A stretch of DNA of 64,000 nt from Thermoplasmata archaeon (GTDB taxonomy: Archaea > Thermoplasmatota > E2 > JACPAO01 > JAHFTW01), in NCBI GenBank assembly GCA_034667725.1, contig JAXDQS010000001.1, positions 288,001 through 352,000 on the forward strand, given 5' to 3'. The notes beneath the pieces are model-generated. The model worked only from the letters and a program-made list of their open reading frames with translations, ran no database searches and had not been told where the DNA came from. Numbering within the stretch: position 1 is the first letter of the stretch; every line of letters starts with the position of its first letter. The translations under genes were made by a program, and so were the position numbers. This document shows positions 17,738-46,968 of this stretch, in pieces.

Positions 17738-19951
17738 ATGCCCACCACCCCCAGCTACCCAGGAGTCTACATCGAGGAGGTGCCCAGCGACGTCAAGACC
17801 ATCGTGGGCGTCGCGACCGCCCGCACCGCCTTCGTCGGCCGCGCCCTGCGCGGGCCGCTGGACGAGCCGGTGCGCATCACCAGCTTCGGCGACTTCGAGC
17901 GCCGCTTCGGCGGCCTGTGGCGCGCGAGCACGCTTGGCTACGCCGTCCGGCAGTACTTCCAGAACGGCGGCGGCGACGCGGTCATCGTCCGGGTCTCGAA
18001 TCCCGAACCGCAGAAGGACGCCAACGGCAACGTGCTGGTCGCGGAACACGCCACCGCCACCGCCTCGCTCGGCCAGGCCACCACCGTGCGCTTCGAGGCG
18101 GCCACCGCGGGCGCCGGCGGCAACGGCATCACCGTCGCCATCTCGCGCAGCAGCGTGGCGGGCCAAGCCAACGACCCGGCCCGGTTCGACGCGGCCGTCA
18201 CCGGCACCGACTCAAACGGCCACCCGGACACCCGCCAGTTCGCGGGCCGCACCCTTGCCCAGCTCCAAGGCAACCTGGCCAACGCCCAGTCCTACGTCAC
18301 AATGCCCAGCGCTCCCGCAGGGGTCCTGCTGGAGCGCGCCACCGCCACGCTGGCAGGCGGCGCCGATGCCGTGGCCGCCTGGCAGGAGCTGAAGGCCGGT
18401 GCCAGCCCCGTCGCCATCCTGGAGGCCGTGACGCCCGGCGTGGCCGGCAACACCATCGCCGTCACCGTCGGCACCGCCACCGACGGCACCGGCGCCAAGT
18501 TCAACCTCACCATCTCCCAAGGCGCCACCTCGGTGGAGCTCGAGGACCAGACGGCCGCCACCCTGGGCGCCGCCATCGCGGCCGACGCGACCGCCCAGGG
18601 CCTTGTCCGGCTTGCGACCGATTCTCCGACCAATCCGGTCGGCCGCCCGCCCAACGGCGGCCCGACGCCGCTTGCCGGCGGCGCCGACGCCAAGCCCGCG
18701 GGCGTGGACGCTGTTGGCTACGCCGACCCGCCGGGCGTCATGAAGCTCGAGGCCGCCAACCCCGGCCTCTGGGGCAACAGGCTGACGGCCACGGTGAACC
18801 ACAAGGGCGAGCAGGCCGTCGCCGACGCCAAGAAGTTCAACCTGCTGCTGGAGGAGCGGGACGGCCGCGGCGACGTGGTGGCGCTCGAGGCGCACCTCAA
18901 CGTCTCCGTGGACTCCGGCGACAAGCGGCGCGTCGACCGCGTCCTTGCGACCCAGTCGGCCTTTGCGCGCCTCGTGGACGGATTGCCCGCCGAGCGTCCG
19001 CCGGAGCGCACCCTGCTATGGTTCGCGGGCGGCGCCGACGGCCCCGACATCACGGACGCCCTGCTGCAGGGCAGCCCAGGCACCAAGACCGGCCTGTTCG
19101 CGCTCGAGAAGGAGGACCTGTTCAACATCCTCTGCATCCCGCCGCCCACCCGCGAGGGCGACGTCAAGGAGGCGACCTGGACGGTGGCGATGGGCTACTG
19201 CGAGAAGCGCCGCGCCATGCTGCTGGTGGACCCGCCGCGCGACGTGGAGAGCGTCGATGCGGCTCGCGCGGCCCTCGACTCGGGCCTCTTCAGCAAGCTG
19301 CGCCACCCGAACGTGGTGTTCAACTTCCCGCTGCTGGAGATGCCGGACCCGCTCATGGAGGACCGGCCCGAGAAGTTCGTCCCGAGCGCCGCCGTCGCGG
19401 GCCTCTACGCCCGCACCGACGCCGCCCGCGGCGTCTGGAAGGCCCCCGCCGGCCAGGAAGCCAGCCTGCGCGGCGTCCACAAGCTCGCCGTCAAGCTCAC
19501 CGACCCCGAACACGGCTACCTCAACCCGCTCGGCCTCAACTGCGCCCGCACCTTCCCGGTGACGGGCACGGTGATGTGGGGCGCGCGCACCAGCCGCGGC
19601 GCCGACCAGCTTGCCTCCGAGTGGAAGTACGTCCCCGTGCGCCGCACCGCGCTCTACATCGAGGAGACCCTGTTCCGCGGCACGCAATGGGTCGTGTTCG
19701 AGCCCAACGACGAGGACCTGTGGGCGCAAATCCGCCTCAACGTCGGCGCCTTCATGCACGACCTGTTCCGCAAGGGCGCGTTCCAGGGCGCCAGCGCCAA
19801 GGACGCCTACTTCGTCAAGTGCGACGGCGAGTCCACGCCCCAATCGGACATCGACAAGGGCATCGTCAACATCCTGGTGGGGTTCGCCCCGCTCAAGCCC
19901 GCCGAGTTCGTGTTCGTCAAACTCAGCCAGATGACCAAGCGAGGTGCCTAG
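17738..19951 (+). CDS. Contractile tail sheath protein
   Basis: YPGVYIEE N-terminus; RTDAARGVWKAPAG, WGART, WKYVPVRR, WVVFEPND, GFAPLKPAEFV. Confidence 0.96.
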   Translation: MPTTPSYPGVYIEEVPSDVKTIVGVATARTAFVGRALRGPLDEPVRITSFGDFERRFGGLWRASTLGYAVRQYFQNGGGDAVIVRVSNPEPQKDANGNVLVAEHATATASLGQATTVRFEAATAGAGGNGITVAISRSSVAGQANDPARFDAAVTGTDSNGHPDTRQFAGRTLAQLQGNLANAQSYVTMPSAPAGVLLERATATLAGGADAVAAWQELKAGASPVAILEAVTPGVAGNTIAVTVGTATDGTGAKFNLTISQGATSVELEDQTAATLGAAIAADATAQGLVRLATDSPTNPVGRPPNGGPTPLAGGADAKPAGVDAVGYADPPGVMKLEAANPGLWGNRLTATVNHKGEQAVADAKKFNLLLEERDGRGDVVALEAHLNVSVDSGDKRRVDRVLATQSAFARLVDGLPAERPPERTLLWFAGGADGPDITDALLQGSPGTKTGLFALEKEDLFNILCIPPPTREGDVKEATWTVAMGYCEKRRAMLLVDPPRDVESVDAARAALDSGLFSKLRHPNVVFNFPLLEMPDPLMEDRPEKFVPSAAVAGLYARTDAARGVWKAPAGQEASLRGVHKLAVKLTDPEHGYLNPLGLNCARTFPVTGTVMWGARTSRGADQLASEWKYVPVRRTALYIEETLFRGTQWVVFEPNDEDLWAQIRLNVGAFMHDLFRKGAFQGASAKDAYFVKCDGESTPQSDIDKGIVNILVGFAPLKPAEFVFVKLSQMTKRGA

Positions 19952-19952
19952 A

Positions 19953-20477
19953 ATGGTTCAGTTCAGCGTCAACAGCCACCGGTTCGACCCGTACAAGAAC
20001 TTCAAGTTCAAGGTGAAGTGGGACGGCGAGTACGTCGCCGGCATCAGCAAGGTCAGCGCCCTCAAGCGCACCACCGAGGTCGTCGAGCACCGCGAAGGCG
20101 GCGACCCCTCGAGCGGCCGCAAGAGCCCCGGCCGCACCAAGTTCGAGCCCATCACGCTGGAGCGCGGCGTCACCCACGACAAGGAGTTCGAGCAGTGGGC
20201 CAACAAGGTGTGGAACATCACCGGCGGCACCAGCGCCGAGACCAGCCTCAAGGACTTCCGCAAGGACCTGGTCATCGACGTATTCAACGAGGCCGGCCAG
20301 AAGGTGGTGTCCTACCGCGTCTACCGCGCCTGGGTGTCCGAGTTCCAGGCCCAGGCCGACCTCGACGCCAACGCCAACGCCGTCCTGATCCAGAGCATCA
20401 AGCTGGAGAACGAAGGCTGGCTGCGCGACGACGCCGTGGCCGAGCCCACCGAAGGCAGCTTCGTCCTGCCCGAGTGA
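19953..20477 (+). CDS. Tail tube protein (T4 gp19-like)
   Basis: FDPYKNFKF, HREGGD, KSPGRTKFEPITLERGVT, LDANANAVLIQSIKLENEG; GAGGTG ribosome-binding site upstream. Confidence 0.95.
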   Translation: MVQFSVNSHRFDPYKNFKFKVKWDGEYVAGISKVSALKRTTEVVEHREGGDPSSGRKSPGRTKFEPITLERGVTHDKEFEQWANKVWNITGGTSAETSLKDFRKDLVIDVFNEAGQKVVSYRVYRAWVSEFQAQADLDANANAVLIQSIKLENEGWLRDDAVAEPTEGSFVLPE

Positions 20478-21259
20478 GCCGCGTGGCGGGCGTGACGGTC
20501 CGTGTGCCGCACGGACTCTGGGACGACGGGGCTTGCCACAGGCAGGCCGTGCTGCACCCGCCCGGCTGGGAGGCCGTCGCCGCCTTGGCCGGCGCGGACC
20601 ACCTGCCGGCGGCGGCGTGGACGACCCAGGTCCTGGCCGCCTGCGTCGAGCCGTTGCCGGGCCGCGACGTCCTGGCGACCGCCGCGGCATGGACCCTCGG
20701 CGACCGTGCCGCGCTGCTCCTGGAGGTCCACCGCCTGCTGACGGGCGGCCCGCTCGCCATCGTCGCCGACTGCCCGTCCTGCAAGGCCACCATGGAGGCC
20801 GAGCTCGGCCCCGACGACCTGCGGCCGCCCGAGCGCGCCTCCAGCCCTTGGCACGACACCACCGTCGCAGGCGTCCGGGTGCGGTTCCGCGTCCCGACCG
20901 GCGCCGACCTGGAGGCCGCCGACGGCACGGCGGGCGCGCTGCTGCGGCGCATCGTGCTGGCGCAGGACGGCGACGTGCCGGCGGACCTGCTGGAGGCGCA
21001 CCTGTCCGACCAGGTGGCCGAGCTGGACCCGCAAGCCGAGATCCTGCTCGCGTTGGCGTGCCCCGCGTGCGCCGCCCCCGTGGACGCCCTGCTGGACCCC
21101 GTCGTCCACGTGCGCGCCGACCTCGCCCGCGCCGCCGAGCGCACCGCGCTGGAGGTCCATGGCCTCGCGCGCCACTACGGCTGGAGCGAGCAGGCCATCC
21201 TCGCGCTGCCGGCCGAGCGCCGGGCCCGCTACCTCGCCTTGGTCGGGGAGGCGCCATGA
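20474..21259 (+). CDS. T4 gp26-like baseplate/tail assembly chaperone-like protein
   Basis: Two CxxC motifs (CPSC, CPAC), RFRVPTGAD, EVHGLARHYGWSEQAILALP; GTG start overlaps the tube stop. Confidence 0.75.
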   Translation: MSRVAGVTVRVPHGLWDDGACHRQAVLHPPGWEAVAALAGADHLPAAAWTTQVLAACVEPLPGRDVLATAAAWTLGDRAALLLEVHRLLTGGPLAIVADCPSCKATMEAELGPDDLRPPERASSPWHDTTVAGVRVRFRVPTGADLEAADGTAGALLRRIVLAQDGDVPADLLEAHLSDQVAELDPQAEILLALACPACAAPVDALLDPVVHVRADLARAAERTALEVHGLARHYGWSEQAILALPAERRARYLALVGEAP

Positions 21260-22362
21260 GCCTGCTCGCCCGCCTGGCGGCCCGCGGCGCCACCCCCGTC
21301 CGCGCCCTTGGCCGGGCGGCGCCTGCCGGCGCGCCCTGGGCCGCGGGCGCGGCGGAGGCGCCGGCGGCCGCGCCAGCCCCGGTGTCCACGCCAGCCCCAG
21401 CGCAGGCTGTCGTGCCCCGGACGCCTGTGCCTGAGCCTGCCCCCGTCCCTGGGATGTTGGCCGTCCCGGCGCAGGCAGCGCCGCCGGTGCCGTCGCCGCT
21501 TGCGGCCCCAACGGTCCCAGCGGGGCAAGCGGAGCCGGCGAGCGTGGCGGCCCTGGCCGCGCCGACGCCAACGGCGATGGCCATGCCGGCGCCGGAAATC
21601 GGCGGCGTGGACCCGCCTGCGCCGGCCGCGGTCGCGGCGGCGGCGCCCGCGCCGCGCCGGCAGGCCGGCCCGGCGCCCGCCGTCCAACCGCAACCCGGCC
21701 GGGCGGTCGCCACCGTTGCGGTGCCTGCCATAGCAAGCCGGCCGCAACCTAGCTTCAGGGAGGCGGCTGAGCGGGTAGAACAGTCGGGTCGCGCGGAACG
21801 CGCCGAACCCGCGGAACGCTCCGAGCGTGCCGAGCCTGCCGAGCGCGTCGAACGTGCCGAACGTTCCGAGCGCATCGACCCGCCCGCGCAGGCCCCGACG
21901 CCCGCCGGTCGCGTCGTGGCCAAGCCCACGCCGACGCCAGCGCCGAAGTCACCGCCGATGCCACCGCCGATGCTGGTGCCGACGCGGGCCGCCCCGCCCA
22001 CGCCGTCCGCGCCTGCGCTGCCGGCTCCCGCCAAGCCCACGCCCATGGCCGCGCCGGCCGCGCCTCCCGCACCGCGCCCAGCCGCCGTGGCCGCCCGGCC
22101 CGCCCCGGTCGCTGCTCGGCCGGCGCCGCCGTCCATGCCCGTCGCGCCCTGGGCGGCCGCGGCCGGCCGCGCCGCGGCTGCGCCGCCGGCGGCGGCCGGG
22201 GCGTCGCAGGCCCGGCCGCAAGTCCACGTGCGCATCGGGTCGGTCGAGCTGCGCGCGCCGCCCGCCGCGCCGGCGCCCGCGGCGCCGGCCCGCGCGCCGG
22301 CGGCGGCGCCCGACTTGGGCGGCTACGCGGCGCTGCGCAGCCATGCCTGGGGGGACCCTTGA
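21256..22362 (+). CDS. Pro/Ala-rich low-complexity eCIS protein
   Basis: ATGA overlap with the upstream gene; C-terminal VHVRIGSVELRA motif; internal AERAE/AERSE repeats. Confidence 0.7.
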   Translation: MSLLARLAARGATPVRALGRAAPAGAPWAAGAAEAPAAAPAPVSTPAPAQAVVPRTPVPEPAPVPGMLAVPAQAAPPVPSPLAAPTVPAGQAEPASVAALAAPTPTAMAMPAPEIGGVDPPAPAAVAAAAPAPRRQAGPAPAVQPQPGRAVATVAVPAIASRPQPSFREAAERVEQSGRAERAEPAERSERAEPAERVERAERSERIDPPAQAPTPAGRVVAKPTPTPAPKSPPMPPPMLVPTRAAPPTPSAPALPAPAKPTPMAAPAAPPAPRPAAVAARPAPVAARPAPPSMPVAPWAAAAGRAAAAPPAAAGASQARPQVHVRIGSVELRAPPAAPAPAAPARAPAAAPDLGGYAALRSHAWGDP

Positions 22363-23702
22363 TGCTCCAGCAGCAGCACCAGATGCTGTCGGCGGTGACG
22401 CACACGCTGACGGAGCTGCTGAAGAAGCGCATGGCCAACCCGCCGGGGACCATCCAGAGCCTGCCGCCGGACGTCCAGGTCAAGGACCCGCCGGGGCCGA
22501 AGCGCCTCAACCTGTTCCTCTACCGCGTCGTCGAGAACCCGTTCTTGAAGAACCACGACGCCGGCGCGTCCGCGGGCAGCTTCGGCCGGCCGCCCCTGAG
22601 CCTCGACCTGCACTTCCTCATGACGGCGTACGGCGGCAGCGACGAGGACAGCAAGGGCGCCCAGGAGATCCTCGGCGACGCCATGGCGGTGTTCCACGAC
22701 CACGCCATCGTGCGCGCGTCCGACCCGGCGTACGCCGACGTGCGCGACCCGTTGCTGGACGACGCGTTCGAGCATGTCCGCATCGGCCTGGAGCCCATCA
22801 CGACGGAGGACCTGACGAAGGTGTGGACCTCGCTCACGGTCCCGTACCGCCTGTCGGTCGCCTACGTGGTCACCGTGGCGCAGATCAAGAGCCGCACGCC
22901 CCGCAAGGCCGCGCCGCTGGTGCGCGGCGGCGACCGCGATTCCCGGCCGCTCTCGGGCCACGACGGGACCCCGGCGGCGGAGCTGGCGCGGATGGAGGGC
23001 CGCCGCCTCCAGGTGACGGCGTTCGAGCCGCCGGTGCTGGAGTCGGTGATGGTGCTGCGTCCCGGCGACCTGGACGACGCGCCGCCGCACGTGGCTTACG
23101 CCGCCATCGGCGACCGGCTGGTGCTGCGCGGCCGGAACCTCGGGCGGCCCCAAGCCGAGGGCGGGCAGCCCGCGTTCGTGCAGGTGGGCCCGCTCCGGCT
23201 CGCCGTGCCGCCGGCCACGCACGCGCCCAACCGCATCGTGATGCCGCTGCCCGACGACCCGGCCTTGCAAGCGGGGCCATGCAGCGTCCACGTCGCCGTC
23301 GAGCAGGGCAGCGGTCGCCTCCTGACCACCAACCGCCGGCCGGTGCTCGTCATCCCGTTCGTGGAGTCGGCGTGGAAGACGACGGCGCAGGTGCCCGACG
23401 AGGACAACCCCGCGCCGCCGGGCCAGCCGCAGCCGCAGAAGACCGTCGACGCCGTGGGCGTGCGCGGCACCCGGCTGTTCCGTCCGGGCGTCGAGTGCAG
23501 CACCATCCTGAGCGCCCCCGGCGGCGCGACCATCCAGGTCCCGGGCGAGCGCTACCTCGAGTGGCAGCCCGGCGGCGCCGGCCAGCCGCAGGAGATCCTG
23601 GTCCCGCTGCCGGCCGGCGTCGACGCCGCCGGCATGGGCGTCCGCGTCCTGGTGGACGGCCACGAGAACCTGCCCCGCCCCGGCCTGGAGGTGGCGCCGT
23701 GA
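22362..23702 (+). CDS. DUF4255 / Pvc16(Afp16)-like cap protein with C-terminal Ig-like extension
   Basis: LSAVTHTLTELL, LNLFLYRVVENP, PPLSLDLHFLMTAY, VWTSL...YRLSVAYVVTV. Confidence 0.88.
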   Translation: MLQQQHQMLSAVTHTLTELLKKRMANPPGTIQSLPPDVQVKDPPGPKRLNLFLYRVVENPFLKNHDAGASAGSFGRPPLSLDLHFLMTAYGGSDEDSKGAQEILGDAMAVFHDHAIVRASDPAYADVRDPLLDDAFEHVRIGLEPITTEDLTKVWTSLTVPYRLSVAYVVTVAQIKSRTPRKAAPLVRGGDRDSRPLSGHDGTPAAELARMEGRRLQVTAFEPPVLESVMVLRPGDLDDAPPHVAYAAIGDRLVLRGRNLGRPQAEGGQPAFVQVGPLRLAVPPATHAPNRIVMPLPDDPALQAGPCSVHVAVEQGSGRLLTTNRRPVLVIPFVESAWKTTAQVPDEDNPAPPGQPQPQKTVDAVGVRGTRLFRPGVECSTILSAPGGATIQVPGERYLEWQPGGAGQPQEILVPLPAGVDAAGMGVRVLVDGHENLPRPGLEVAP

Positions 23703-25762
23703 ACGGCGGCAACGACTGGCACGCCCGCAACCTGGCCTATCTCGACCTGCACCTGGCCGGGCTGCGCGCGCGCATCGCCCGCGAGGCCGAGACGATGCGC
23801 ACGGCGTGGCGCGCCGACCCGCTGCACGGCGCCGGCGTCGTCAGCGACGAGGAGGCCGATCACCTGCTCGCCCGGACCCTGACCCCCGCCGACGTGGCCG
23901 CAGCGCCCGAGGTCGCGCAGGCCCGCCGCTGGTTCGACAAGCACGGCGCGCCGCCCGCGCTCGACCGCCTCGGCGCCCGCCTCGGCCTCGACCCGACCGA
24001 CCTGGACGTCGTCGTCCTCTGCCTCGCGCCGCACCTCGACCCCGCGTTCGCGCGGCTCTACGCCTACCTCCAGGACGACGCGCGCAGCACCCGCCCGACT
24101 CCGGACCTGGCGCGTCGGCTGCTCGGCCCGCACGCCAGCCTCGCCCGCTTCCTGCCCGACCGGCCGCTGCGCGCCGGCCTGGTCGTGCGCGTCGACGGCG
24201 AGCCCGAGCCCGCCACCCCGCTTGCCAGCCACGCCCTGGCGCTCGACGAACGCACCGTCGCCTTCCTGGTCGGCGAGCAGGCCGGCGACCCCGCCCTGCG
24301 CGACCTGTTGGAGCCCGTGCCCGACAGCCCGCGCACCGAGGCCCACGCCCAAGTGGCCGCCAACGTGCTGGCCTGGCTGCGCGACGAGGCCGAAGCCCCG
24401 CTCTTGGACCTGCGCGGCCGCCCCGCCAGCGGCCGCCGCGCCGTCGCGCACGCCATCGCCGCAGGGCTCCGCCTGCGGCTGATGCTGCTGCACGCCGACC
24501 GGCTGCCCGCGGCGGGCGCCGAGCGCGACCGCGCGCTGCGGCTGCTGCGGCGCGAGAGCCTGCTCGGCCGGGTGGCCATCCTGGTGGACGCCGGCGACGC
24601 CGGCCCGCCGCTCGACGTGCTGCGCTGCGGCGCGTTCTGCGTCGTCGCGAGCACCACCACTTGGCAGGCGCCGCCCGGCACCGTGCGCGTCGACGTGCCC
24701 GCCCCCGACGCGCCCGCCCAAGTCCGCCTCTGGACGCGCGCCCTCCAGGACGCCGGCGTCGACGTGGACGCCAGCCTCGCCCACGGCCTGCCACAACTGG
24801 TCCAGCAGGTGCAGGCGCCGCCGACCGAACTGGCGGGCCTGGTCGCCGGCGCCCGCCGCGCCGCCCGCCTCCAGGGCCGGGCGCTTGCGGTCGACGACCT
24901 CCGGAAGGCGTGCGCCGACCACGTCGCCGTGTCGCTGGGCGAGGCCGCGCGCCGCATCGAGCCCAGCGCCACCATGGACGACCTCGTGCTGCTGCCCGAC
25001 GCCAAGGCCCAGCTTCGGGAAATCATCGCCCAGGTGCGCGGCCGCACCTTGGTGTACGACGAGTGGGGCTTCGCGCGGCCCGACGCCCGCGGCCGCGGCG
25101 TCACGGTGCTGTTCAGCGGCGCCAGCGGCACGGGCAAGACCATGGCCGCCGAGGTGCTGGCCGCGTCCCTCGGGCTGGAGCTCTACAGCATCGACCTCGC
25201 AAGTGTGGTCAGCAAGTACGTCGGCGAGACCGAGAAGAACCTGCGCCGCGTGTTCGACGCCGCCGACCGCAGCGGCGTGCTGCTGCTGTTCGACGAGGCC
25301 GACGCGCTCTTTGCCAACCGCACCGAGGTGCGCGACAGCCACGACCGCTACGCCAACCTCGAGGTCGACTACCTGCTGCAACGCATGGAGTCCTATCGCG
25401 GCCTCGCCGTGCTCGCCACCAACCGCAAGTCCAGCATCGACGCCGCCTTCCTGCGCCGCATCCGCTTCCAGGTCGAGTTCCCGTTCCCCGACCAGAAGGC
25501 CCGCGCCGTGCTGTGGGCCAAGGTGTTCCCCGCCGCCATCCGCCCCGACCTGGACTGGAACCAGCTGGCGCTGTTGGAGCTCACCGGCGCCGGCATCCGC
25601 AACACCGCCCTCAACGCCGCCTTCCTCGCCGCCGCCCGCACGCCGCCCGCCATCACCCACGACGACGTGCTGCACGCCGCCCGCCGCGAGTTCGCCAAGC
25701 TCGACCGCACCCCCGACCGCGCCGCCTTCGCGCCCGCCGTCGCCGCGAGGACCCGCGCATGA
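23699..25762 (+). CDS. AAA+ ATPase (Afp15/Pvc15-like)
   Basis: LFSGASGTGKTMAAE, VVSKYVGETEKNL, LLFDEADALF, HDRYAN, LATN, AFLRR; N-terminal YAYLQDD motif. Confidence 0.93.
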   Translation: MNGGNDWHARNLAYLDLHLAGLRARIAREAETMRTAWRADPLHGAGVVSDEEADHLLARTLTPADVAAAPEVAQARRWFDKHGAPPALDRLGARLGLDPTDLDVVVLCLAPHLDPAFARLYAYLQDDARSTRPTPDLARRLLGPHASLARFLPDRPLRAGLVVRVDGEPEPATPLASHALALDERTVAFLVGEQAGDPALRDLLEPVPDSPRTEAHAQVAANVLAWLRDEAEAPLLDLRGRPASGRRAVAHAIAAGLRLRLMLLHADRLPAAGAERDRALRLLRRESLLGRVAILVDAGDAGPPLDVLRCGAFCVVASTTTWQAPPGTVRVDVPAPDAPAQVRLWTRALQDAGVDVDASLAHGLPQLVQQVQAPPTELAGLVAGARRAARLQGRALAVDDLRKACADHVAVSLGEAARRIEPSATMDDLVLLPDAKAQLREIIAQVRGRTLVYDEWGFARPDARGRGVTVLFSGASGTGKTMAAEVLAASLGLELYSIDLASVVSKYVGETEKNLRRVFDAADRSGVLLLFDEADALFANRTEVRDSHDRYANLEVDYLLQRMESYRGLAVLATNRKSSIDAAFLRRIRFQVEFPFPDQKARAVLWAKVFPAAIRPDLDWNQLALLELTGAGIRNTALNAAFLAAARTPPAITHDDVLHAARREFAKLDRTPDRAAFAPAVAARTRA

Positions 25763-26019
25763 CGCCGACCGCCGACGAACTGACCGTCGTCGTGGACCGC
25801 ATCGTGCTGGAGGACCCCAACGTCAGCCCCGAGCGCGCCCGCCGCATCCACGACGGCGTCGAGCGCCGCGTCCAGGCCCTCCTGCAAGAACGCGCGTCGC
25901 CGCAGGGCCCCAGCCTCGCGCCGCCGCCCGGCGCGGACGACGAGGAGCTGGTGGACGCCGTCGCGCGCGCCGTCGTGGCCGCCGTCCGCCGGCAAGGAGG
26001 CCCCGATGGCGACGCGTGA
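25759..26019 (+). CDS. Small eCIS-associated hypothetical protein
   Basis: ATGA overlap with the ATPase stop; LTVVVDRIVLE; overlaps the DUF4157 gene start. Confidence 0.7.
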   Translation: MTPTADELTVVVDRIVLEDPNVSPERARRIHDGVERRVQALLQERASPQGPSLAPPPGADDEELVDAVARAVVAAVRRQGGPDGDA

Positions 26020-31496: not shown

Positions 31497-31777
31497 TGCC
31501 CGTCTATCCCGGGAGCCGCTACGCCCACGCCGCCCGCCGCCTGCACGACGGCCCCGCCGGCGCGACGCCGTACCTCGACCTGCGCATCATCCGCACGCCG
31601 CCGCCCCGCGACCACCACATCGTCCAGGACGGCGAGCGCACCGACCTCGTGGCCAGCCGCCACTTCGCCGACCCCGAGCGCTACTGGCGCATCTGCGACG
31701 CCCAACTGGTGTTCTGGCCGGAGGACCTCGTGGCCCGACCCGGCCGCGCCATCCGAATCCCAGGACCGGAGGGATGA
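31496..31777 (+). CDS. LysM/tail protein X-like small baseplate protein
   Basis: SRYA; HIVQDGERTDLVASRHFADPERYWRICDA; GRAIRIP. Confidence 0.8.
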   Translation: MPVYPGSRYAHAARRLHDGPAGATPYLDLRIIRTPPPRDHHIVQDGERTDLVASRHFADPERYWRICDAQLVFWPEDLVARPGRAIRIPGPEG

Positions 31778-31780
31778 CCC

Positions 31781-33791: not shown

Positions 33792-34150
33792 TGCACGTCG
33801 ACCACCCGCTCCGGGTCGACCCTGCCGGCCGCACCGCCCGCACGCCGCTGGCCGACCACGTGCGCGACCTCGTCCACCAGGTGCTGTTCACCAACCCGGG
33901 CGAGCGCGTCAACCGCCCCGACTTCGGCTGCGGCCTGGCCCGCCTGCTGTGGATGCCCAACAGCGACGTGCTCGCGGCGGCCAGCCAGTTCCTAGTCCAC
34001 GGCGCCCTGCAACGCTGGCTCGGCGACCTCCTGGAGGTCCAGGACGTCCGCATCGACAACACCGACAACCGCCTCACCATCGAGGTCAGCTACCTCATCC
34101 TGGAGGAGGCGACCCGCCACCGCGAGCGCTTCGTGCAGGAGGGCCCATGA
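33791..34150 (+). CDS. gp25/GpW baseplate wedge protein
   Basis: VLFTNPGERVNRPDFGCGL. Confidence 0.92.
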   Translation: MHVDHPLRVDPAGRTARTPLADHVRDLVHQVLFTNPGERVNRPDFGCGLARLLWMPNSDVLAAASQFLVHGALQRWLGDLLEVQDVRIDNTDNRLTIEVSYLILEEATRHRERFVQEGP

Positions 34151-36549: not shown

Positions 36550-39500
36550 GCCACCCGCACGGCCAGGCGACGCCCGCCCCCATCCACAACCGGCCCGGCC
36601 TGCCGCGCCTGCGCTACCGCGTCGGCGACCACGGCCGTTTCCGGCGCGCCATGGTCGAGGCATTGCCGCGCGCGTTCGTGGCCGACCAGGCGCCGCTGCG
36701 GGCGCTCACGGCGCGCGACGACGGCGACCCCGCCATGGCGCTCTTGGACGCCTGGGCGGTCGCGTGCGACGTCCTGACGTTCTACCAGGAGCGCATCGCC
36801 AACGAGGCCTACCTGCGCACCACCGCCCAGCCCGCCCGGGTCGCGGCCGTCGTCGGCCACCGCAGCGCGCCCGGCTGCGCCGCCGCCACGCTGCTGGCGT
36901 TCACCATCGACCACGACCAGCCCGTCGACCTGCCGGCGGGGCTCCAGGTCCAGACCGTGCCCGACCCGGGGCAGAAGCCGGCGCTGTTCGAGACGATGGA
37001 GCCGCTGCGCGCGCACCGCGGCCTCAACCGCGTGGCCGCGCGCGCCACCTGGCCGCAGCCGCCGGCGGGCAAGGCCCGGCAGGCGTGGCTCGTCGGCACC
37101 AAGACCGGGTTGCGCAAGGGCGACACCGTCCTGCTGGTGGCCGGTCCTGGCGCGTGGCACCTGCGCACGCTCACGCAAGTGGACGCGCTGGACGGCCGCA
37201 CCCGCGTGGCTTGGGACGCGGCGTTGCCGGACGGGACGCCGCCGCTCGCGGTCCACGCCGTCGAGCGCGAGGCGCGCGGCTTCGGCCACAACGCGCCGCG
37301 GTGGACCGACCTGCAGCGCCTGTTCGACGCCGCCCAGGCCGTTCCGCCGCCGCCCAAGGGGTACGACGCTTACGTCAAGGCGTGGGGGACCATCCACTTC
37401 TTCGACGCCTCGCCCGCGGACACGAGCCCGACGCCCAAGCGGCCCTTGGACCTGGACTCCCGCTACCCGATCCGTCCCGACAGTTGGGCCATGCTGGTCA
37501 ACGACGATGGCACCAAACGCCAGTTGCTGCGCGTCCAGGCCGTCGCCGAAGTCAGCCGTCAGGACTACCAGGTCGCCGCCACCGTCACCCGCCTCACGAC
37601 CGACCCGCCGTTGCCCGCAACACCCACGGACTTCCCGGTCGCAAGCAGCAAGCTCCTCGCCTTCGGTCCCGCGCTGCCCCAGGCGGAAGGGCCGGCGCCC
37701 ATCCTGCGCGCAGGCGGCGTCGCGCTCGACCTCGACGGCGACCATCCCGCCTTCCACGACGGCCGCCGCCTGGTGCTCGAAGGCCGCCGCGTGCGCGTCC
37801 ACAAGGGCTTCGCCGGCCCGCCCGTCACCTTCCCGGACCCGGTGTTCGCGCCGACCTTGAAGGCCTCCGGCGCCGTCCGCCTCGTGCGCGTCGAGCTTGG
37901 CGGCGCGCCCGTGTTCCTCCTCAAGGCGCCCCAGAACCTGGGCGACAAGGCCGAGCCGTTCGACGTGCTGCTGGCCGGCGCGTGGGCCGGCAAGGCGCCC
38001 GGCTATGCCATCCAGGCCAGCGACGCGACGGTCCACGGCAAGGGCGCCCCGGTCCAAGCCCACGTCCTGTACGTCGACGCCGACAACGACGGCGGCTACG
38101 GCCGCGGCGACGCCGTCTACCTCAGCAGCAGCCCCGCCGGCCTGGTCGCGACCAAGGACGCCGACTTCAGCCTCCGCCTCACCGGCCCGGAGGCCGGCAC
38201 GCTGGTGCTGAAGGACCAGGCCGACCTGGTCGCGTCGGGCCACGCCGCCCGCGCCGGCCTGAGCCCCGACGGCCCGCCGGGCCTCGCGCTGTTCGACGCC
38301 GACGGCGACGGCCTGTTCCACGCCGGCCGCGACCGGCTCTACCTTACGCCCGGCCCCGTCGCGGAAGGCAGCCTGGTGCCGCCCGCGGCGGTGCGCCTGC
38401 ACGGCGGCACGTTCGGCTCGCAGGTCGGCTTCGGCGACCAAGACCATCCCGTGCTGCCGACGGCAGCACTCGCCGGCGGCGCCGCAGGCGAGCGGATCGA
38501 GCCGCTGGACATGGGCACCGAGGCCGTCGAGGTCGCGGCGGTGCGGCGCGGCGACGGCGGCCGGACCCGCCTCGAATTGGCGGCGGGCCTCCTGCACGAC
38601 TACGACCCGGCCACCGTCGTGCTGCACGGCAACGTCGCGCCCGCCACCCACGGCGAGACCCAGAAGCCCGCGGCCCTCGGCAGCGGCGAGGCCACCGCCG
38701 AGCACCAGGCGTTCGCGCTCCCGAAGGCGCCGCTGACCCACGTCGCCGACCCGAAGGGCGAGCACGGCGTCCGCCCCGAGCTCCTGGTGCGCGTCGGCGG
38801 CGTGGCGTGGGACGGCCGGCCCACGCTGCACGGGGCCGCGCCGGACGCCGCCGCCTACGCGGTGCAGCGCACGGCCGACGGCACCTTCGTCCGCTTCGGC
38901 GACGGCGACGCGGGCGCCCGCCTGCCCACCGGCACCCACAACGTCACCGCGCTCTACCGCCAAGGGCTCGGCCGCGCCGGCAACGCGCGCGCCGGCCAGG
39001 TGCGCAACCTCAAGGACAAGCCGAAGGGCCTCAAGGCCGCCGCCAACCCGGTGCCGGCCACCGGCGGCGTCGATCCCGAGTCCACCGACACGACCCGCGC
39101 CGCCGCGCCCGAGAGCGTGCTGGTGCTCGACCGCGTCGTGTCGCTGCGCGACCACGAGGACGCGGCGCGGGCGTACGTCGGCGTCGCGCAGACCCGCGCC
39201 CGCATGGCGTGGCACGGCGGCGAGCGGGTCGTCGAGCTCACCATCGTCGGCGACGACGGCGAGCGGCTGCCCGCCGGCCACCCGCTGCGCGCCAGCCTGA
39301 TGGGCTACCTCGACGCCCGCCGCGACCCGCACCAGGCCGTGCGGCTGCGCGCCCACGAGCCGGTGCCGCTCACCATCGCGGTGCGCATCGACGCCGATCC
39401 CCGCCACGATGCCGAGGTGGTGCGCGCCGCCGCCCGCGCCATCCTGCTGGAGCGGTTCGCCTTCGGCCACGGCGAGCTGGGCGGGCCCGTGCAGGCCAGC

Positions 39501-39671
39501 GACCTGCTGGAGCTGCTGCACCGCGTCCCGGGCCTGGTGGGCGCCCACCTGCTGCGGCTGTCGCGCGGCGCCGCGGCGGACGCGCCCGCCCGCCTGCCGA
39601 TGGCGGCGCACGAGCTGGCGACCCTGGACCCGCGCGACCTGCGCGTCCTGCTGCGGGGGGAGCCGGCATGA
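36546..39671 (+). CDS. Baseplate J/gp6-like wedge protein 2 with internal insertion
   Basis: HNRPGL, ALLDAWA...VLTFYQERIANEAYLRT, GNVAPATHGE, VRFGDG...GARLPTG, RVVSLRD. Confidence 0.88.
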   Translation: MSHPHGQATPAPIHNRPGLPRLRYRVGDHGRFRRAMVEALPRAFVADQAPLRALTARDDGDPAMALLDAWAVACDVLTFYQERIANEAYLRTTAQPARVAAVVGHRSAPGCAAATLLAFTIDHDQPVDLPAGLQVQTVPDPGQKPALFETMEPLRAHRGLNRVAARATWPQPPAGKARQAWLVGTKTGLRKGDTVLLVAGPGAWHLRTLTQVDALDGRTRVAWDAALPDGTPPLAVHAVEREARGFGHNAPRWTDLQRLFDAAQAVPPPPKGYDAYVKAWGTIHFFDASPADTSPTPKRPLDLDSRYPIRPDSWAMLVNDDGTKRQLLRVQAVAEVSRQDYQVAATVTRLTTDPPLPATPTDFPVASSKLLAFGPALPQAEGPAPILRAGGVALDLDGDHPAFHDGRRLVLEGRRVRVHKGFAGPPVTFPDPVFAPTLKASGAVRLVRVELGGAPVFLLKAPQNLGDKAEPFDVLLAGAWAGKAPGYAIQASDATVHGKGAPVQAHVLYVDADNDGGYGRGDAVYLSSSPAGLVATKDADFSLRLTGPEAGTLVLKDQADLVASGHAARAGLSPDGPPGLALFDADGDGLFHAGRDRLYLTPGPVAEGSLVPPAAVRLHGGTFGSQVGFGDQDHPVLPTAALAGGAAGERIEPLDMGTEAVEVAAVRRGDGGRTRLELAAGLLHDYDPATVVLHGNVAPATHGETQKPAALGSGEATAEHQAFALPKAPLTHVADPKGEHGVRPELLVRVGGVAWDGRPTLHGAAPDAAAYAVQRTADGTFVRFGDGDAGARLPTGTHNVTALYRQGLGRAGNARAGQVRNLKDKPKGLKAAANPVPATGGVDPESTDTTRAAAPESVLVLDRVVSLRDHEDAARAYVGVAQTRARMAWHGGERVVELTIVGDDGERLPAGHPLRASLMGYLDARRDPHQAVRLRAHEPVPLTIAVRIDADPRHDAEVVRAAARAILLERFAFGHGELGGPVQASDLLELLHRVPGLVGAHLLRLSRGAAADAPARLPMAAHELATLDPRDLRVLLRGEPA

Positions 39672-41938
39672 CGACGCCCACGCCGCAGCGGCTGGTCCCC
39701 GACCTGCACGCGCTGCTGCCCACGGTCCACAAGCTGGAGGACGCGCGGCTGGGCGGGCCGCTGCAGGCGCTCCTCGACGTGATGTCGGCGCAGGGCGACC
39801 TGGTGCGGCGCGACATCGAGCTGCTGTGGGACAACCTGTTCATCGACACCTGCGCCGACTGGGTCGTGCCTTACATCGGCGACCTGGTGGGCACCCGGCC
39901 GCTGCACGACGTCGACCAGGCGCGCCGCCGCGACGTGGCCCGCACCATCGGCAACCGCCGCCGCAAGGGCGTGCTGCCCATGCTGGAGCAGCTGGCCAAG
40001 GACGTCACCGGCTGGCAGGTGCACGCCGTCGCCGAGTTCGAGCGGCTCGCCTGGACCCAGCACCTGGAGCACGTCCGCAGCCAAGGCCCGCCGCTGCGCT
40101 GGTCGATGCACGACGACCCGACGGCGTCGCTGGTCGCCGCCGCCGAGGTGCGCGATGCCGACCTCATGGACCGCGTCGGCGGCCCGTTCGACCAGACCGC
40201 CCGCACCATCGACGTCCGCCACGCCGTGCATGACCGCGTCCGGCCCCACGTCCGCAACGTCACGTTCCACGCCGAGCCGCACAAGGCCCTGGAGGTCAAG
40301 CGCGTCCTCGTGCATCCCGTCGAGCTGCCGGCCGGCCATCCGCACCACGGCCGCGCCTTCCGCATCGGCCACCTCGGCGCCGACTTCCCGCTGTTCGCGC
40401 AGGCCAACCCGCCCGTGGGGCTGGGCGACCCGGACCCCACGCTGCCGCCCTTCCTGCCGGGCTCGCCGCTCCGTCCGCTCGCGGTCCACATCGACGTCGA
40501 GCAGGCCCGCCGCCGCTTCATGCACAAGGAGGGCGGCGCGTCCCAATACATCGGCCCCGACCGCAGCCTCCAGTTCTGGTTCGGCGCCGCCGCCACCCCC
40601 GCCCACGAAATCCACGTCATGGACCTGTCCGACTGGGGCACGGTGACGCTCCCGGACAACACGCTGGCGTCCCGGGTGCCGACCAAGCTGCGCTACGTCG
40701 ACCGCAACGGCAAGCGCCTGCGCGGCAAGCCCCCCAAGGAAGGCGTGCAGGGCCCGCTGCTGCCCATCCTCCAAGTGGACTTGGCGCTCGACGTCACCAC
40801 CGGCCGCATCATCCAGCGCAGCGGCGCGCGCCGGATGCGCGTCACCTACCAGCGCGGTGTCGCGGCGCCCCTGGGCGGCGGCACCTACCACCGCGACGTG
40901 GCCGAGCCCCGCGGCCTGCCCTGGCAGGTCTCGATCCCGCAGCACTACACCTCCCTTGGCACCGCGCTCAACGCCTGGGAGGCCGCGCGCGACGCCGAAC
41001 TGGCCCAAGGCCGGCACCTCGACGGGCTCATCGAGCTCGACACCAACGGCGTCCGCGACGCCTTCACCAGCATCCAGTTGGCCCCCGGCTGCGAGCTGGT
41101 GCTGCGCGCCGCCGACCTGCGCTGGCCCCACTTCCGCGGCCCCCTTCACATCCATGGCGCGAAGGACGCCAAGCTCACCCTGGATGGCGTCTGCATCCAG
41201 GACCAGTTGCGCATCGACGGCGAGGTCGAGCTCTTGGTGCGCCACAGCGCCCTCGTGCCCGGCCTGCGGCTCCACGGCGACGGCTCGCCCGCCCACCCGC
41301 TGGCGCCAAGCATCGTGCCGGGCCCCAAGCTCGACCTGCGGCTGCGCATCGAGCACAGCGTCGTCGGCCCGCTGCGCCTGCCGCCCGAGGCCGCGACCGT
41401 CGAGGCCAGCGACAGCATCCTGCAGGCCCCCGAGCCGACGCCCGGCGAAGCCGGCGTCGCCTTCGAGGGGCCGCCGCTGCGGCTGGAACGCTGCACCGTC
41501 TTCGGCACGGTCCAGGCGCGCACCCTGCACGCCTCCGAGACCCTGTTCGTGGACCCCGTGGTCGTCGAACGGCGCCAGGAGGAGTGCGTGCGCTTCAGCC
41601 ACGTGCCCGAGGGCAGCCTGACGCCCCGCAGGTTCCGCTGCCAGCCCGACCTTGCCGTCGCGGCGCTCGGGGACGCCGCCACCCCCGCCGACAAGGCCCG
41701 GCTTCGGGCCCGGATCGCGCCCGTCTTCCTGTCCCGCCGGTACGGCCATCCCGACCACGCCCGCCTCCACCCCGAAACGGACCCGGCCGTCCGCGAGGGC
41801 GCCGAGGACGGCGGCGAGATGGGCGCGCACCACCTGCTGCACGACCCGCACCGTGAGCAGAACCTGGACGCCCGCATGGAGGAATACCTCCCCCTGGGGC
41901 GGCGGCACACCCTTGCGACTCCCGAGGCCCGACCATGA
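39668..41938 (+). CDS. Phage tail protein I/gp7-like baseplate protein
   Basis: LWDNLFIDTCADWVVPYIGDLVG, RRRKG...LEQLAKDVTGW, GAEDGGEMGAHH, EYLPLG. Confidence 0.8.
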   Translation: MTTPTPQRLVPDLHALLPTVHKLEDARLGGPLQALLDVMSAQGDLVRRDIELLWDNLFIDTCADWVVPYIGDLVGTRPLHDVDQARRRDVARTIGNRRRKGVLPMLEQLAKDVTGWQVHAVAEFERLAWTQHLEHVRSQGPPLRWSMHDDPTASLVAAAEVRDADLMDRVGGPFDQTARTIDVRHAVHDRVRPHVRNVTFHAEPHKALEVKRVLVHPVELPAGHPHHGRAFRIGHLGADFPLFAQANPPVGLGDPDPTLPPFLPGSPLRPLAVHIDVEQARRRFMHKEGGASQYIGPDRSLQFWFGAAATPAHEIHVMDLSDWGTVTLPDNTLASRVPTKLRYVDRNGKRLRGKPPKEGVQGPLLPILQVDLALDVTTGRIIQRSGARRMRVTYQRGVAAPLGGGTYHRDVAEPRGLPWQVSIPQHYTSLGTALNAWEAARDAELAQGRHLDGLIELDTNGVRDAFTSIQLAPGCELVLRAADLRWPHFRGPLHIHGAKDAKLTLDGVCIQDQLRIDGEVELLVRHSALVPGLRLHGDGSPAHPLAPSIVPGPKLDLRLRIEHSVVGPLRLPPEAATVEASDSILQAPEPTPGEAGVAFEGPPLRLERCTVFGTVQARTLHASETLFVDPVVVERRQEECVRFSHVPEGSLTPRRFRCQPDLAVAALGDAATPADKARLRARIAPVFLSRRYGHPDHARLHPETDPAVREGAEDGGEMGAHHLLHDPHREQNLDARMEEYLPLGRRHTLATPEARP

Positions 41939-44900
41939 GCGACTTCACCCGCATCACCCACGACGCCACCAAGCACTACACCCGCGTCCTCCGGCAGCAA
42001 GGCCGCGTCGACCTCGACGCCGATTGGAACGAGGGCATGGACATCCAGGCCCACGAGCTGCGCACCCGCACCCTCGACGTGGTCGGCGCCGCCGGCGTCC
42101 CCGCCGACGCGCCCGGCTTCGGCGTCACCTACCAGCCCACCGCAGGCGCCCCTGACTTTGCCCTCAGCGCCGGCCGCCTCTACGTCGACGGCATCCTGGC
42201 CACGCTGGAGAAGCCCACCACGTACACCAAGCAGCCCGACCTCCAGCCCGCGCCGCTCTTGGCCCCCGCGGCCAACGCCCGCCACCTGCTCTACGCGCTG
42301 CTGTGGGAGCGCCACGTCACGGCCCACGTCGACGACAAGCTGCGCGAGCCCGCCCTCGACGGCCTCGACACCGCCACCCGCACCCGCACCATGGCGCAAG
42401 TGCGCTGGATGACGGCGCCCGAGCACTGCGCCACCGCCTCCGCCGAATGGGACGCGCTCACCCGCCCCACCGGCATGGGCCTGCACTGCCGCGGCGCGCC
42501 CGCGACCCCGGCCGCGACCCCGTGCGACGTGCAGCCCCGCCGCGGCTACCACGGCGGCGGCAACCGCCTGTACCGCGTCGAGATCCACGACGCCGGCCTG
42601 CCGTACCCGTTCGACCACGCCCAGGTCGAGGCGGTCGTCGCCACCGACGTCGGCGGCAACACCTACCAGATGGCCGACATCGGGCGCCCCTGGCAGCCCG
42701 GCGACGCGCTCGAGCTGTTCCAAAGCAACGGCACCGCCAGCGTCCTCACCGCCGTCCAGGCGGTCAACGGCAACCAGGTCAAGGTCGAGGCCCAGGTCAA
42801 CGTCAGCCTGGACCGCGCCCGCCGGGTCGCGACCTACAAGTGGTCGCGCGACAACGGCTCCGTCGTCCTTGCGGTCACGGGCTTCCCGGACCCGGTCGCC
42901 CTGCCCCGCGCCGTGAGTGTCGCCCGCTTCGGGCGCGACCACGTGCTCGGCCTCCGGCCCGGCGACTGGGTCGAGGTCGTGAGCGACCAGACCGAGACCG
43001 CCCGCGGCCCAGGCACGATGGCGCAGGTCGTCAAGATCCACGAGGGCGACCTCCGCATCGACCTCGACCGCGACGTCGCCCACCACGCCGGCCAGGGCAG
43101 CCTCCGGCTGCGGCGCTGGGACGACGTGCAGGGCCTCCGCCCCGTGCGCGCCGACGCCGACGACACCACCACGACGTTCCTGGAGCTGGAGGACGACGTC
43201 GAAGTGCGCTTCAGGTCCGACGGCCACGCCGTGCGCAGCGGCGACTGGTGGGCGTTCACCGCGCGCCGCTCCGGCGTGGCGGGCGACCCCGGCGACGTGC
43301 AGGACCTCCACGGCGCGCCCCCCGAAGGCCGCGTCCACGTCGCCCGCCTCGCCATCGTCGAGTGGGGCGTGCAGAGCGGCAACGCCTGGACGCCCATCCT
43401 CCACGACTGCCGCCGCCGCTTCCTCCCGCTCACCGAGCTGGACTCGCCGTGCCCGGCCACCAGCGTCGGCGACGGCACCACCAGCATCGGCCGGCACACG
43501 CACAACGCCGACTATCCATACGGCCTCCAGCAGGCCATCGACAGCCTCGACGCCGGCATGATCCACGTCCTGCCCGGCCGCTACGTGCTCCCCGACTCGC
43601 TGCGGCTACACAGCGGCATCACGCTGCAAGGCTGCGGCGACCGCTCCATCCTGGTGGCCCCCGCCGGCAAGCCCGCCGTCCTCGCCGCCAGCGTCGGCGA
43701 ACCCATCACGGAGGTCGCGCTCGAGACCCTGCGCATCGAAGGCGCCGTCCGCTTCGAGCGGGTCGAGAAGGCCCGCGTCCAAGGCTGCACCGTCCTTGGC
43801 GCCGGCGATCCCGCCATCGTCGCGCGCGACGCCCGCTGGCTGCGCGTGCTCGACTGCCGCGTCGACGGCAGCCCCGCCCTCCACTTCCAGGCGGAGGACG
43901 CCACCGTCGCCACCAGCCGCGTGCGCGGCGCCATCCAGGTGAGCCGCGCCAGCAGCCGCGTCGACGTCACGCGCTGCGTGCTCCACCACGCCGACGGCCA
44001 CGCCGTCGAGGTCGGCGGCGCGCCGCCCGCCCCGGGCGCCGGCGCCGTCGCGGTGGCCGACGCGCCCCCCAGCCGCGTCCGCGTCCACGCCAACCTGGTG
44101 CGGCGCGCCGGCAAGTGCGCGGTCTGGGCGGCGGCCGCGGCGGGCGACGGCGCGCACGGCCTCGCCATCGAGGACAACCGCATCCAGCAGTGCTGGGCCG
44201 GCGGCAGCGCGGCGCCCTACCTGTCGGCGGCCGTCCACGTCGAGCACTGGGCCCGCGTCAGCATCCTCGGCAACGAGGTCACGGACAACGCCCGCACGAT
44301 GGCTGGCGACGGCACGCCTGGCGTCCGCCTCGTGGCCTGCGAGGACGTGGACCTCATGGGCAACCACGTCGCCAAGAACGGCGCCATGGGCCACGCCCCC
44401 GCCCTGATGGCCGTCGGCTGCGAACGGCTGCACGCCGCCCACAACCACCTGCACGGCTGGGGCCGCATCGCCAGCAAGCCCGACGGCGCCCCCGCCCGCG
44501 TCGCGGTGGTGCTGCACGGCCGCGCCCTGCGGCTGCACGGCAACCGCGTCCGCGGCGGCGCGGTCCAGGTGCTGGACGGCTCCTCCGGCGTCCACGTCGA
44601 GGCCAACCACGTCGCCGACGGCGACGGGCCCGGCATCCACCTCGGCGGCGGCAAGGCGGCCAAAGGGGACACGAAGACCGTCGGCAAGACTCCCGTGGAA
44701 ATCCCCCAGGTATTCTCATGGCCGACCTTTGGCGGGACGAAGACGAACCCGGCCATCCCCGCGCTCGGCGAGAACGCCAAGAAGGTGCCGGTCCGGAGCA
44801 GGAAAGTGGTGGCGGAGGAAGAACAGACGCCCCCCGCCCCCAGCACGCGGGACGTCGTCGTCCGGCACAACCAGGTCGAGGCGATGCAGGGCAACGGCAT

Positions 44901-46968: not shown

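Follow-up and report, generated by a model that had tools for sequence, protein, structure and literature searches.

Does the block of same-strand genes at positions 17738-46968 of the DNA stretch analysed here encode a complete contractile injection system (CIS), and if so, how did such a machine come to stand on the chromosome of an uncultured Thermoplasmata archaeon and where would it fire? The stretch, called the window below, is 64,000 nt long, corresponds to bases 288001-352000 of a 367,845-bp contig and supplies all coordinates given here. Judged from its sequence, the block is a complete and intact head-less contractile injection system of the extracellular (eCIS) or phage-like protein-translocation structure (PLTS) type on an archaeal chromosome, with function and expression predicted from the intactness of the open reading frames (ORFs) and from promoter-like signals. 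As a whole, a lineage-II CIS transferred from bacteria, transcribed as an operon from an archaeal TATA-type promoter and working by a mechanism that leads from baseplate assembly to sheath contraction, is the account that we consider probable.

Gene content of the operon

Because the window has a GC content of ~74%, raw ORF lists consisted mostly of spurious frames, and genes were therefore called by codon log-odds and by frame plots of GC at third codon positions (GC3), while families were assigned by Pfam and NCBIfam profile searches with curated cut-offs. This calling left exactly 19 ORFs between 17738 and 46968, all on the plus strand and with no internal stop, and at 15 of the 18 gene junctions the neighbours overlap or directly adjoin (-14 to +3 nt), in line with the 19 coupled same-strand genes of a preliminary description of this DNA. 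The full headless contractile tail with DUF4255, AAA+ ATPase and DUF4157 that it had also proposed is borne out by profile matches above cut-off for the core parts, namely Phage_sheath_1/1C, Phage_T4_gp19, Pvc16_N, winged-helix domain (WHD) plus AAA, eCIS_core/DUF4157, TPR, CIS_tube, Phage_GPD, Phage_base_V, GPW_gp25, Baseplate_J/TIGR02243 (twice) and DUF6519 with Beta_helix. With respect to the eCIS/PLTS definitions (Chen 2019; Geller 2021), the block holds sheath and tube genes with PDB matches to CIS sheaths and tubes, the baseplate and spike core of Afp8 (gp27 and gp5), Afp9 (gp25) and Afp11 (baseplate J), the Afp16/Pvc16 (DUF4255) and Afp15/Pvc15 AAA+ ATPase genes and a DUF4157/eCIS_core gene, and head, packaging or integration genes were not found among the scanned genes of the window. 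It is by the marker genes for the DUF4255 cap and the AAA+ ATPase that eCIS are told apart from prophage tails and from the canonical type VI secretion system (T6SS).

The sheath (Afp2-4/Cis2; 17738..19951; PF04984 and PF17482 above cut-off) has 737 aa with a large N-terminal/middle insertion, and its best PDB matches were 9EZM (1.3e-70) and 8BKY (1.2e-67). The tube (Afp1/Cis1; 174 aa; 19953..20477; PF06841, E 3.5e-46) is 74-79% identical to homologues in Thermoleophilaceae and Betaproteobacteria. The Pvc16/Afp16 tail terminator (DUF4255; 447 aa; 22359..23702; PF14065, E 6e-40) is present in a single copy in the genome and is followed by the Pvc15/Afp15-type AAA+ ATPase (23699..25762; PF22977 and PF00004), which carries an N-terminal winged-helix domain and intact motifs (Walker A GASGTGKT at 474, Walker B LLLFDE at 528). 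The DUF4157/eCIS_core protein (1285 aa; 26006..29863; PF13699, E 3e-28) contains the motif HELVH.

Further downstream, a second tube-fold protein (227 aa; 30813..31496) resembles the Afp5/7 tube initiators (PF19266 CIS_tube, E 1.5e-7, above cut-off), and Afp8 is split into an N-terminal half, the gp27/gpD-like baseplate hub (31781..32887; PF05954, E 3e-8, above cut-off), and a C-terminal half, the gp5/VgrG OB-fold spike (32884..33450; PF04717, E 1.7e-23). The gp25-like baseplate wedge (Afp9; 33791..34150; PF04965, E 2.8e-15) precedes two Baseplate-J proteins, one Afp11/Cis11a-like (800 aa; 34147..36549; TIGR02243, E 1.3e-55, above cut-off) and one Afp11/Cis11b-like (1041 aa; 36546..39671; PF04865; TIGR02243, E 1e-62), which are mutually paralogous (BLASTP 5e-12) and the second of which matches the Streptomyces Cis11 structure 9GTP (E 8.6e-8). 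The last gene (41935..46968) encodes a 1677-aa tail fibre in which DUF6519, the eBAP5 baseplate anchor (PF20129, E 2.3e-40), is joined to a long right-handed beta-helix (PF13229, E 5e-15); DUF6519 has been defined as an eCIS fibre anchor, often with beta-helix folds behind it (PMC12923769).

Gene position contributes to three more assignments. The PAAR-like spike tip (113 aa; 33450..33791), at the Afp10 position, matched DUF4280 below cut-off (E 0.0046) and has same-position homologues of 44-46% identity in locus L020 and in the same-genus genome G004; the gpI/Afp12-like peripheral baseplate protein (756 aa; 39668..41938) matched Mu Gp48 below cut-off (E 0.0049) and has a same-position homologue in G004 (29-50% identity). 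The Ala/Pro-rich 368-aa protein (21256..22362), whose frame was set by GC3 and an ATGA overlap, is a putative tape measure (Afp14/Cis14-like), taken as such from its gene position; its C-terminal motif V.V.IG.VEL is kept in the same-position gene of L001, L002 and G004 and recurs in a looser form in L008, L010 and L020.

Among the remaining genes, a conserved 236-aa protein (20549..21259), which has a CxxC...CxxC motif and whose C-terminal helix is conserved, had no Pfam match above cut-off; it has same-position homologues of 31-40% identity in the compared bacterial loci and in G004 and is possibly an assembly factor. No family match was obtained for the 86-aa protein (25759..26019), which is coding by codon score and whose position is taken by a 120-aa gene on contig P0004, nor for a conserved 93-aa protein at the Afp6 position (31496..31777), whose same-position homologues in L008, L010, L012 and G004 are 40-43% identical. 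The TPR protein (318 aa; 29860..30816; TPR families, E 1e-34), joined to both neighbours by ATGA overlaps, is an accessory component with chaperone/adaptor or immunity as candidate roles.

According to the published rule, subtypes IIa and IIc are recognised by two afp11 copies, an afp8 split into gp27 and gp5 ORFs, and the presence of afp10, and archaeal loci have previously been reported in both (Chen 2019, PMC6899500). The operon holds two TIGR02243 paralogues, has PF05954 and PF04717 on two different genes and includes a PAAR-like gene; on this count it is a lineage-II locus of subtype IIa or IIc.

Assembly, cargo and place of firing

Taken together, the parts list and the characterised homologues suggest a course of events that begins with a baseplate, which would be built from the hub, the spike, the PAAR tip, the gp25-like wedge, the two J-like proteins and the gpI-like protein. 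On this baseplate the tube would polymerise around the Ala/Pro-rich tape-measure-like protein, the sheath would polymerise around the tube, and Pvc16 would cap the assembly, while the AAA+ ATPase may aid assembly or the loading of cargo, for which the 1285-aa DUF4157 protein is the candidate. The DUF6519 beta-helix fibre would bind a glycan on the surface of the target cell, and contraction of the sheath would then drive spike and cargo into it.

The candidate cargo, encoded in a single copy in the genome, consists of Lys/Glu repeats, a HELVH domain with an intact HExxH at residue 293, a middle domain (~465-620) and a Gly-rich beta C-terminal half. The middle domain (residues ~455-640; window 27368-27925) has homologues in 176 clusters at 50% identity, and four of the six relatives scanned are eCIS_core proteins of 1177-1322 aa. 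Across 36 aligned relatives a DVDH...N...N pattern recurs with eight invariant residues (W, H, E, N, L, N, G and W), and the conserved signature reads W...DVDH.xE.Q...N.ELLD.S.N.SSGS. No Pfam model matched this domain above cut-off, the HNH profile PF01844 reaching E 0.015 (15.8 bits vs. a cut-off of 21.4) and E 0.0064 in one relative. An alignment-based AlphaFold2 model attained a pLDDT of 83.8 (33 for the single-sequence model), and neither a Foldseek search of the PDB (best E 0.55, with weak rows for HNH enzymes) nor a VIA-wide comparison (best Z-score 3.4) returned anything convincing. A word-indexed search among proteins of 706-2249 aa matched the middle domain to its own protein alone, and an Atlas feature search with the C-terminal half gave leads below 0.9 only. 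A nuclease role for the middle domain is best treated as a lead; the locus points to a large family of 1200-1300-aa DUF4157 proteins that share this conserved domain and have no above-cut-off Pfam or structural match to it.

The place of firing is the least certain step. A released, fibre-guided particle is favoured, with chances about evenly balanced, because a fibre is present and the operon appears to encode no membrane protein (a hydropathy scan found no strong transmembrane segment in its 19 proteins). The preliminary description had gone further and named the system an extracellular nano-syringe, a label for which the sequence gives too little: a parts list of this kind does not tell a released particle from an anchored or a cytoplasmic CIS, and the solved sheaths that match best come from one membrane-anchored and one cytoplasmic system. 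The same machine might instead stay in the cell, firing at the cytoplasmic membrane as the haloarchaeal 'T6SS' does or acting in the cytoplasm as CIS-Sc of Streptomyces does. This main rival we regard as somewhat unlikely, although the solved sheaths 9EZM (Halogeometricum borinquense, membrane-anchored) and 8BKY/8BL4 (Streptomyces, cytoplasmic) match at e-70 to e-65, vs. e-44 to e-34 for PVC2-3 and Afp2-3, the only solved baseplate-J match is the Streptomyces structure 9GTP, and the window showed no lysis cassette. Both characterised systems, however, need a membrane protein (Hbor_38620 and CisA, respectively) of a kind that the operon appears to lack, the 1677-aa DUF6519 beta-helix fibre is of a type catalogued for target binding by eCIS, and the locus lies far from the haloarchaeal clade in the trees described below.

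Several observations nonetheless count against a released particle assembled as outlined above. The solved sheaths rank with 9EZM first, followed by 8BKY/8BL4, all from non-extracellular systems and all well ahead of PVC and Afp; fibre-like Cis13 proteins are present in anchored systems too; no lysis or release genes were recognised in the window; and the tape-measure, PAAR-like and gpI-like roles combine gene position with weak matches. A more specific version of the released particle, in which a bacterial eCIS passed between domains into a soil or groundwater Thermoplasmata lineage, gained an archaeal TATA promoter and works as an extracellular, fibre-guided injector with the widespread DUF4157-linked nuclease-like domain as payload, is unlikely when all its parts are taken together. 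If true, no earlier archaeal CIS would have worked in released form, and archaea would have in it a weapon against glycan-coated bacterial or eukaryotic neighbours.

Origin, expression signals and integrity of the locus

Within the GTDB class, the Pvc16_N domain (PF14065) was detected in four of 197 genomes, which belong to a single order: the present genome, one of the 12 others of the genus, one of the same family and one of the same order. An even sample of the phylum gave three of 401 genomes, again all within one order. Five same-genus genomes retain L21e-Rpo4-DUF655 with no eCIS adjoining, and the eCIS of the same-genus genome G004 lies on a different contig and at a different locus, encodes proteins 30-67% identical to those of the window and looks intact. 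Given this sporadic distribution and the same-genus genomes without an eCIS at the site, the locus was not inherited from the ancestor of the lineage.

Among species-representative genomes the nearest sheaths belong to Thermoleophilaceae (56% identity), Betaproteobacteria/Burkholderiales (51-52%) and Lysobacterales (46%), followed by haloarchaea (37-40%). In the IQ-TREE sheath phylogeny the window sequence falls into a clade supported at 99/99 with seven bacterial and three Thermoplasmata sequences, its own included, and haloarchaeal sheaths form a separate clade (100/99). The ATPase tree agrees, recovering the same cluster at weaker support with the haloarchaea apart; for both proteins the haloarchaeal clades reach 99-100 support, away from the window's clade. 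The system was thereby placed with those of Thermoleophilia, Burkholderiales and Myxococcota rather than with haloarchaea, and this nesting, together with the scattered and diverged occurrence in the genus, gives no support to the view of the preliminary description that the system was 'domesticated', if this is meant as a long-standing trait of the lineage. The nearest sheath in metagenomes (69% identical) is carried by P0003, a 10.8-kb Joint Genome Institute contig of 75% GC whose flanking genes share 35-79% identity with this genome; against relatives, the single gene searched gave 54-56%.

A transfer from bacteria to this archaeal family appears to be the most economical reading, because the distribution is sporadic and because sheath and ATPase nest in a bacterial clade; entry would have been by horizontal transfer from a clade now found in Thermoleophilia, Burkholderiales, Lysobacterales and Myxococcota. 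Two results leave room for other numbers and directions of transfer: an approximately unbiased (AU) test did not reject the grouping of the three Thermoplasmata sheaths in one clade (p 0.104), and each archaeal locus carries the GC content of its own host, that of G004 being at the lower GC of its host. The order probably received CIS more than once, because the same-order genome G029 carries another CIS lineage (G029:C32:19740-25137; L164, L184 and L187), whose sheath sits on a long branch with a haloarchaeal, Chloroflexota and cyanobacterial group and not in the window's clade.

Upstream of the operon, a TATA-box-like TTTAATAAAA at 17660..17669 (+) lies 78 nt before the sheath ATG and is a putative archaeal operon promoter, from which the 19 genes would be transcribed as a single unit. 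With only 14 occurrences on the two strands, the pattern TTTA+W4 is rare in the 2.3-Mb genome, and other sites lie 17-86 nt before genes for a thermosome-like protein, a TBP-like protein and two giant surface proteins (identified by eye from their N-terminal sequences). The first gene lacks a Shine-Dalgarno (SD) motif and most internal genes are preceded by GGAGG-like motifs; in the bacterial relatives GGAGG stands directly before the ATG of the first gene. The TATA-like box and the missing SD before gene 1 suggest archaeal expression signals, and a T5 run at 47056..47060 (+), 88 nt past the last stop codon, is a possible archaeal terminator. The boxes before these four genes, at G000:C1:203168, C1:208069, C10:42934 and C10:480741, are perfect TTTAWAWA, the giant genes encoding proteins of ~1500-1600 aa with a signal peptide; these few boxes could form a promoter training set for the lineage.

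Composition gives a divided picture. The preliminary description had reported host-like codon use, and at synonymous positions this stands: 8.7% of the gene blocks of the host lie as far from the genome mean, and GC3 is 0.961 in the operon vs. 0.954 in the host. Overall composition is nevertheless atypical: the 29-kb segment is the GC-richest stretch of the genome (74.4% vs. 71.2 +/- 1.4%) and a tetranucleotide outlier, farther from the mean than 98% of genome windows and the most atypical of all once low-GC islands are set aside. This composition, the sporadic distribution in the lineage and the rearranged site described below would all suit a recently acquired bacterial island that is silent or decaying, intact by chance and neither expressed nor assembled. 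We nevertheless find this improbable, as 19 ORFs run over ~29 kb without a stop or frameshift and with catalytic motifs retained, synonymous codon use lies in the host range, the 5' TATA-like box without SD is unlike the bacterial relatives, and a second, diverged and intact-looking locus exists in a same-genus genome.

The borders agree with those described before: a 4HBT/PaaI-type thioesterase (17164-17628) lies to the left, and L21e, Rpb4/Rpo4 and DUF655 (47257-48560) lie to the right. No att-like direct or inverted repeats were found there, apart from low-identity, GC-rich chance matches. A Thermoplasmata host, already guessed at the phylum level in the preliminary description, is supported by the FtsZ of the window, which is 78-79% identical to that of four Thermoplasmata/Thermoplasmatota metagenome-assembled genomes (MAGs) and at most 51% to all else retrieved. 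Genes to the left and to the right of the locus have same-genus orthologues, with 74-91% identity for citrate synthase, 83-84% for methylmalonyl-CoA mutase and 72-89% for L21e, Rpo4 and DUF655. The neighbourhood is rearranged: the methylmalonyl-CoA mutase-GDPD-citrate synthase block (10538-15273) lies upstream of L21e-Rpo4-DUF655, across the eCIS, and in relatives it is found ~14-29 kb downstream of DUF655 (in the same-genus genomes G004-G007 citrate synthase lies ~17-29 kb downstream, the whole block being confirmed in G006 and G007). The eCIS is thus located at the novel junction of the rearranged gene order, and because of this rearrangement a comparison with empty sites is uninformative.

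An assembly or binning artefact, that is, a bacterial fragment (e.g., from Thermoleophilia, also >70% GC) misjoined into an archaeal contig, would fit the bacterial, high-GC nearest relatives and the compositional outlier. It is very improbable: with host orthologues on both sides, a chimera would need two false joins within the archaeal 368-kb contig, related loci occur in two or three other same-order MAGs from independent assemblies (one within a 226-kb contig), the nearest bacterial sheath is just 56% identical, and the bin (2.32 Mb, ~71% GC, 90% complete) is 0.7% contaminated. Hardly credible at all is a remnant tail module of a myovirus-type provirus or R-type tailocin, for although sheath, tube and baseplate families are common in phages, the eCIS markers Pvc16_N, WHD-AAA+ ATPase, eCIS_core/DUF4157, CIS_tube and DUF6519 are present, the sheath matches CIS at e-70 vs. 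e-7 to e-10 for pyocin and T4, and capsid, portal, terminase, integrase and lysis genes were not found in the 64 kb (no match to the capsid, portal, terminase or integrase families among the scanned genes, some ORFs matching no family), as the preliminary description had stated for the integrase. Prophage and T6SS readings were both rejected.

Elsewhere in the window, a low-GC island (3265-9623; 54-60% GC vs. 71-74% around it), separate from the eCIS, adjoins a tRNA-Val(CAC) at 9549-9623 and holds genes for a T5orf172/ResIII helicase-like protein, an Mrr restriction endonuclease and an Eco57I/MmeI-type methyltransferase that is apparently split into ORFs 6074-7615 and 7605-8258; it looks like a horizontally acquired restriction/defence island. 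Two adjacent small genes, 48749-49051 and 49106-49726, open with an 84%-identical 62-nt repeat (region 48728-49170) that encodes a hydrophobic N-terminal segment; the pair, of which the second is rich in Pro and Ser, resembles tandem paralogues for membrane or secreted proteins. Between 52686 and 60102, around ftsZ and enolase, several predicted surface proteins carry BNR/Sortilin-type beta-propellers and bacterial TSP3 (calcium-binding) repeats. At G000:C3:234367-235833, a six-frame match revealed a DAO/Rieske oxidoreductase homologue with one in-frame TAG, which may be a pseudogene or a sequencing error.

Comparison with known systems

The preliminary description had named archaeal eCIS as few and mainly from methanogens and haloarchaea. 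In the portion of the Geller 2021 catalogue available to us, archaeal loci are indeed listed only for Methanosarcinales and Halobacteria, and the Thermoplasmat* genomes among those listed in the accessible part of its supplement are scored eCIS-negative; a full-text literature search returned no description of eCIS in Thermoplasmatota. The nearest relatives of the present system are uncharacterised loci of Thermoleophilaceae (CAVZGG010000025), Betaproteobacteria/Burkholderiales, Lysobacterales and Myxococcales MAGs, with sheaths 46-56% identical. Two of these loci, from Thermoleophilaceae and Betaproteobacteria, were compared with the window for each gene in turn; their tubes are 74-79% and their ATPases 39-50% identical to those of the window, and they share with it the order sheath, tube, 236-aa protein, low-complexity protein, Pvc16, ATPase, DUF4157. 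They differ in their bacterial hosts and in having an SD before the first gene instead of a TATA-like box, and most bacterial sheaths measure ~510-530 aa, without the long insertion of the 737-aa window sheath.

The best solved sheath match (9EZM, 1.3e-70) belongs to the plasmid-borne CIS of H. borinquense, the 'archaeal T6SS' of subtype IIa, which relies on Hbor_38620, a conserved anchor in the membrane (PMC11566945); no other archaeal CIS has been characterised by experiment. Both systems have the lineage-II Cis1-16 content, a duplicated Cis11 and a split spike. Haloarchaeal sheaths are nonetheless 37-40% identical to that of the window and form their own well-supported clade, the haloarchaeal locus L034 has its ATPase on the opposite strand, unlike the window operon, and the latter, in a hydropathy scan made with no direct homology search for Hbor_38620, has no strong transmembrane segment, although the gene for an anchor may lie elsewhere.

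The CIS-Sc of Streptomyces coelicolor and S. venezuelae (8BKY, 8BL4, 9GTP) provides the second-best solved sheath (~1e-67) and the only solved baseplate-J match, and its hosts, like that of the window, are high-GC environmental organisms. It belongs to subtype IId, with a single Afp11 and an unsplit Afp8 vs. two Afp11 and a split Afp8 in the window; it is cytoplasmic, mediates stress-induced cell death and needs the membrane protein CisA (PMC10066040). The related Micromonospora sheath does not join the window's clade and stands on a long branch.

Afp of Serratia entomophila and PVC of Photorhabdus (lineage Ia) follow the same 16-part logic as the window system. Their parts comprise sheath, tube, Afp5/7, spike, PAAR, gp25, Afp11, Afp12, fibre, tape measure, ATPase and cap, and both are proven extracellular, fibre-guided toxin injectors. 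They are much more distant in sequence (sheath e-44 to e-17, tube ~e-5) and possess three sheath paralogues and two tube genes vs. one main tube and a second tube-fold protein in the window; they also have adenovirus-like fibres and toxins at the 3' end, whereas the DUF4157 gene of the window stands mid-operon.

The eCIS of Methanosarcinales and Halobacteria, as far as the dbeCIS and eCIStem catalogues describe them, are likewise chromosomal archaeal lineage-II loci of IIa/IIc type, interpreted there as products of horizontal transfer (Chen 2019; Geller 2021); their hosts belong to another phylum, and the Methanosarcinales loci are likened here by catalogue description only. Against this background the locus is a known kind of system, an ordinary-looking lineage-II CIS, in an archaeal group without a catalogued case in the accessible parts of the surveys. 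It leaves the eCIS concept unchanged, and its value lies in taxonomic range and evolution: it offers a clean example of a ~29-kb, 19-gene machine that would have passed from bacteria to an archaeal chromosome, apparently gaining archaeal expression signals. Belonging to a CIS clade other than the haloarchaeal one and having a recognisable fibre, it is a reasonable candidate in which to look for released particles in archaea, and it extends the host range of archaeal CIS to Thermoplasmatota, beyond the haloarchaea and the catalogued methanogen loci.

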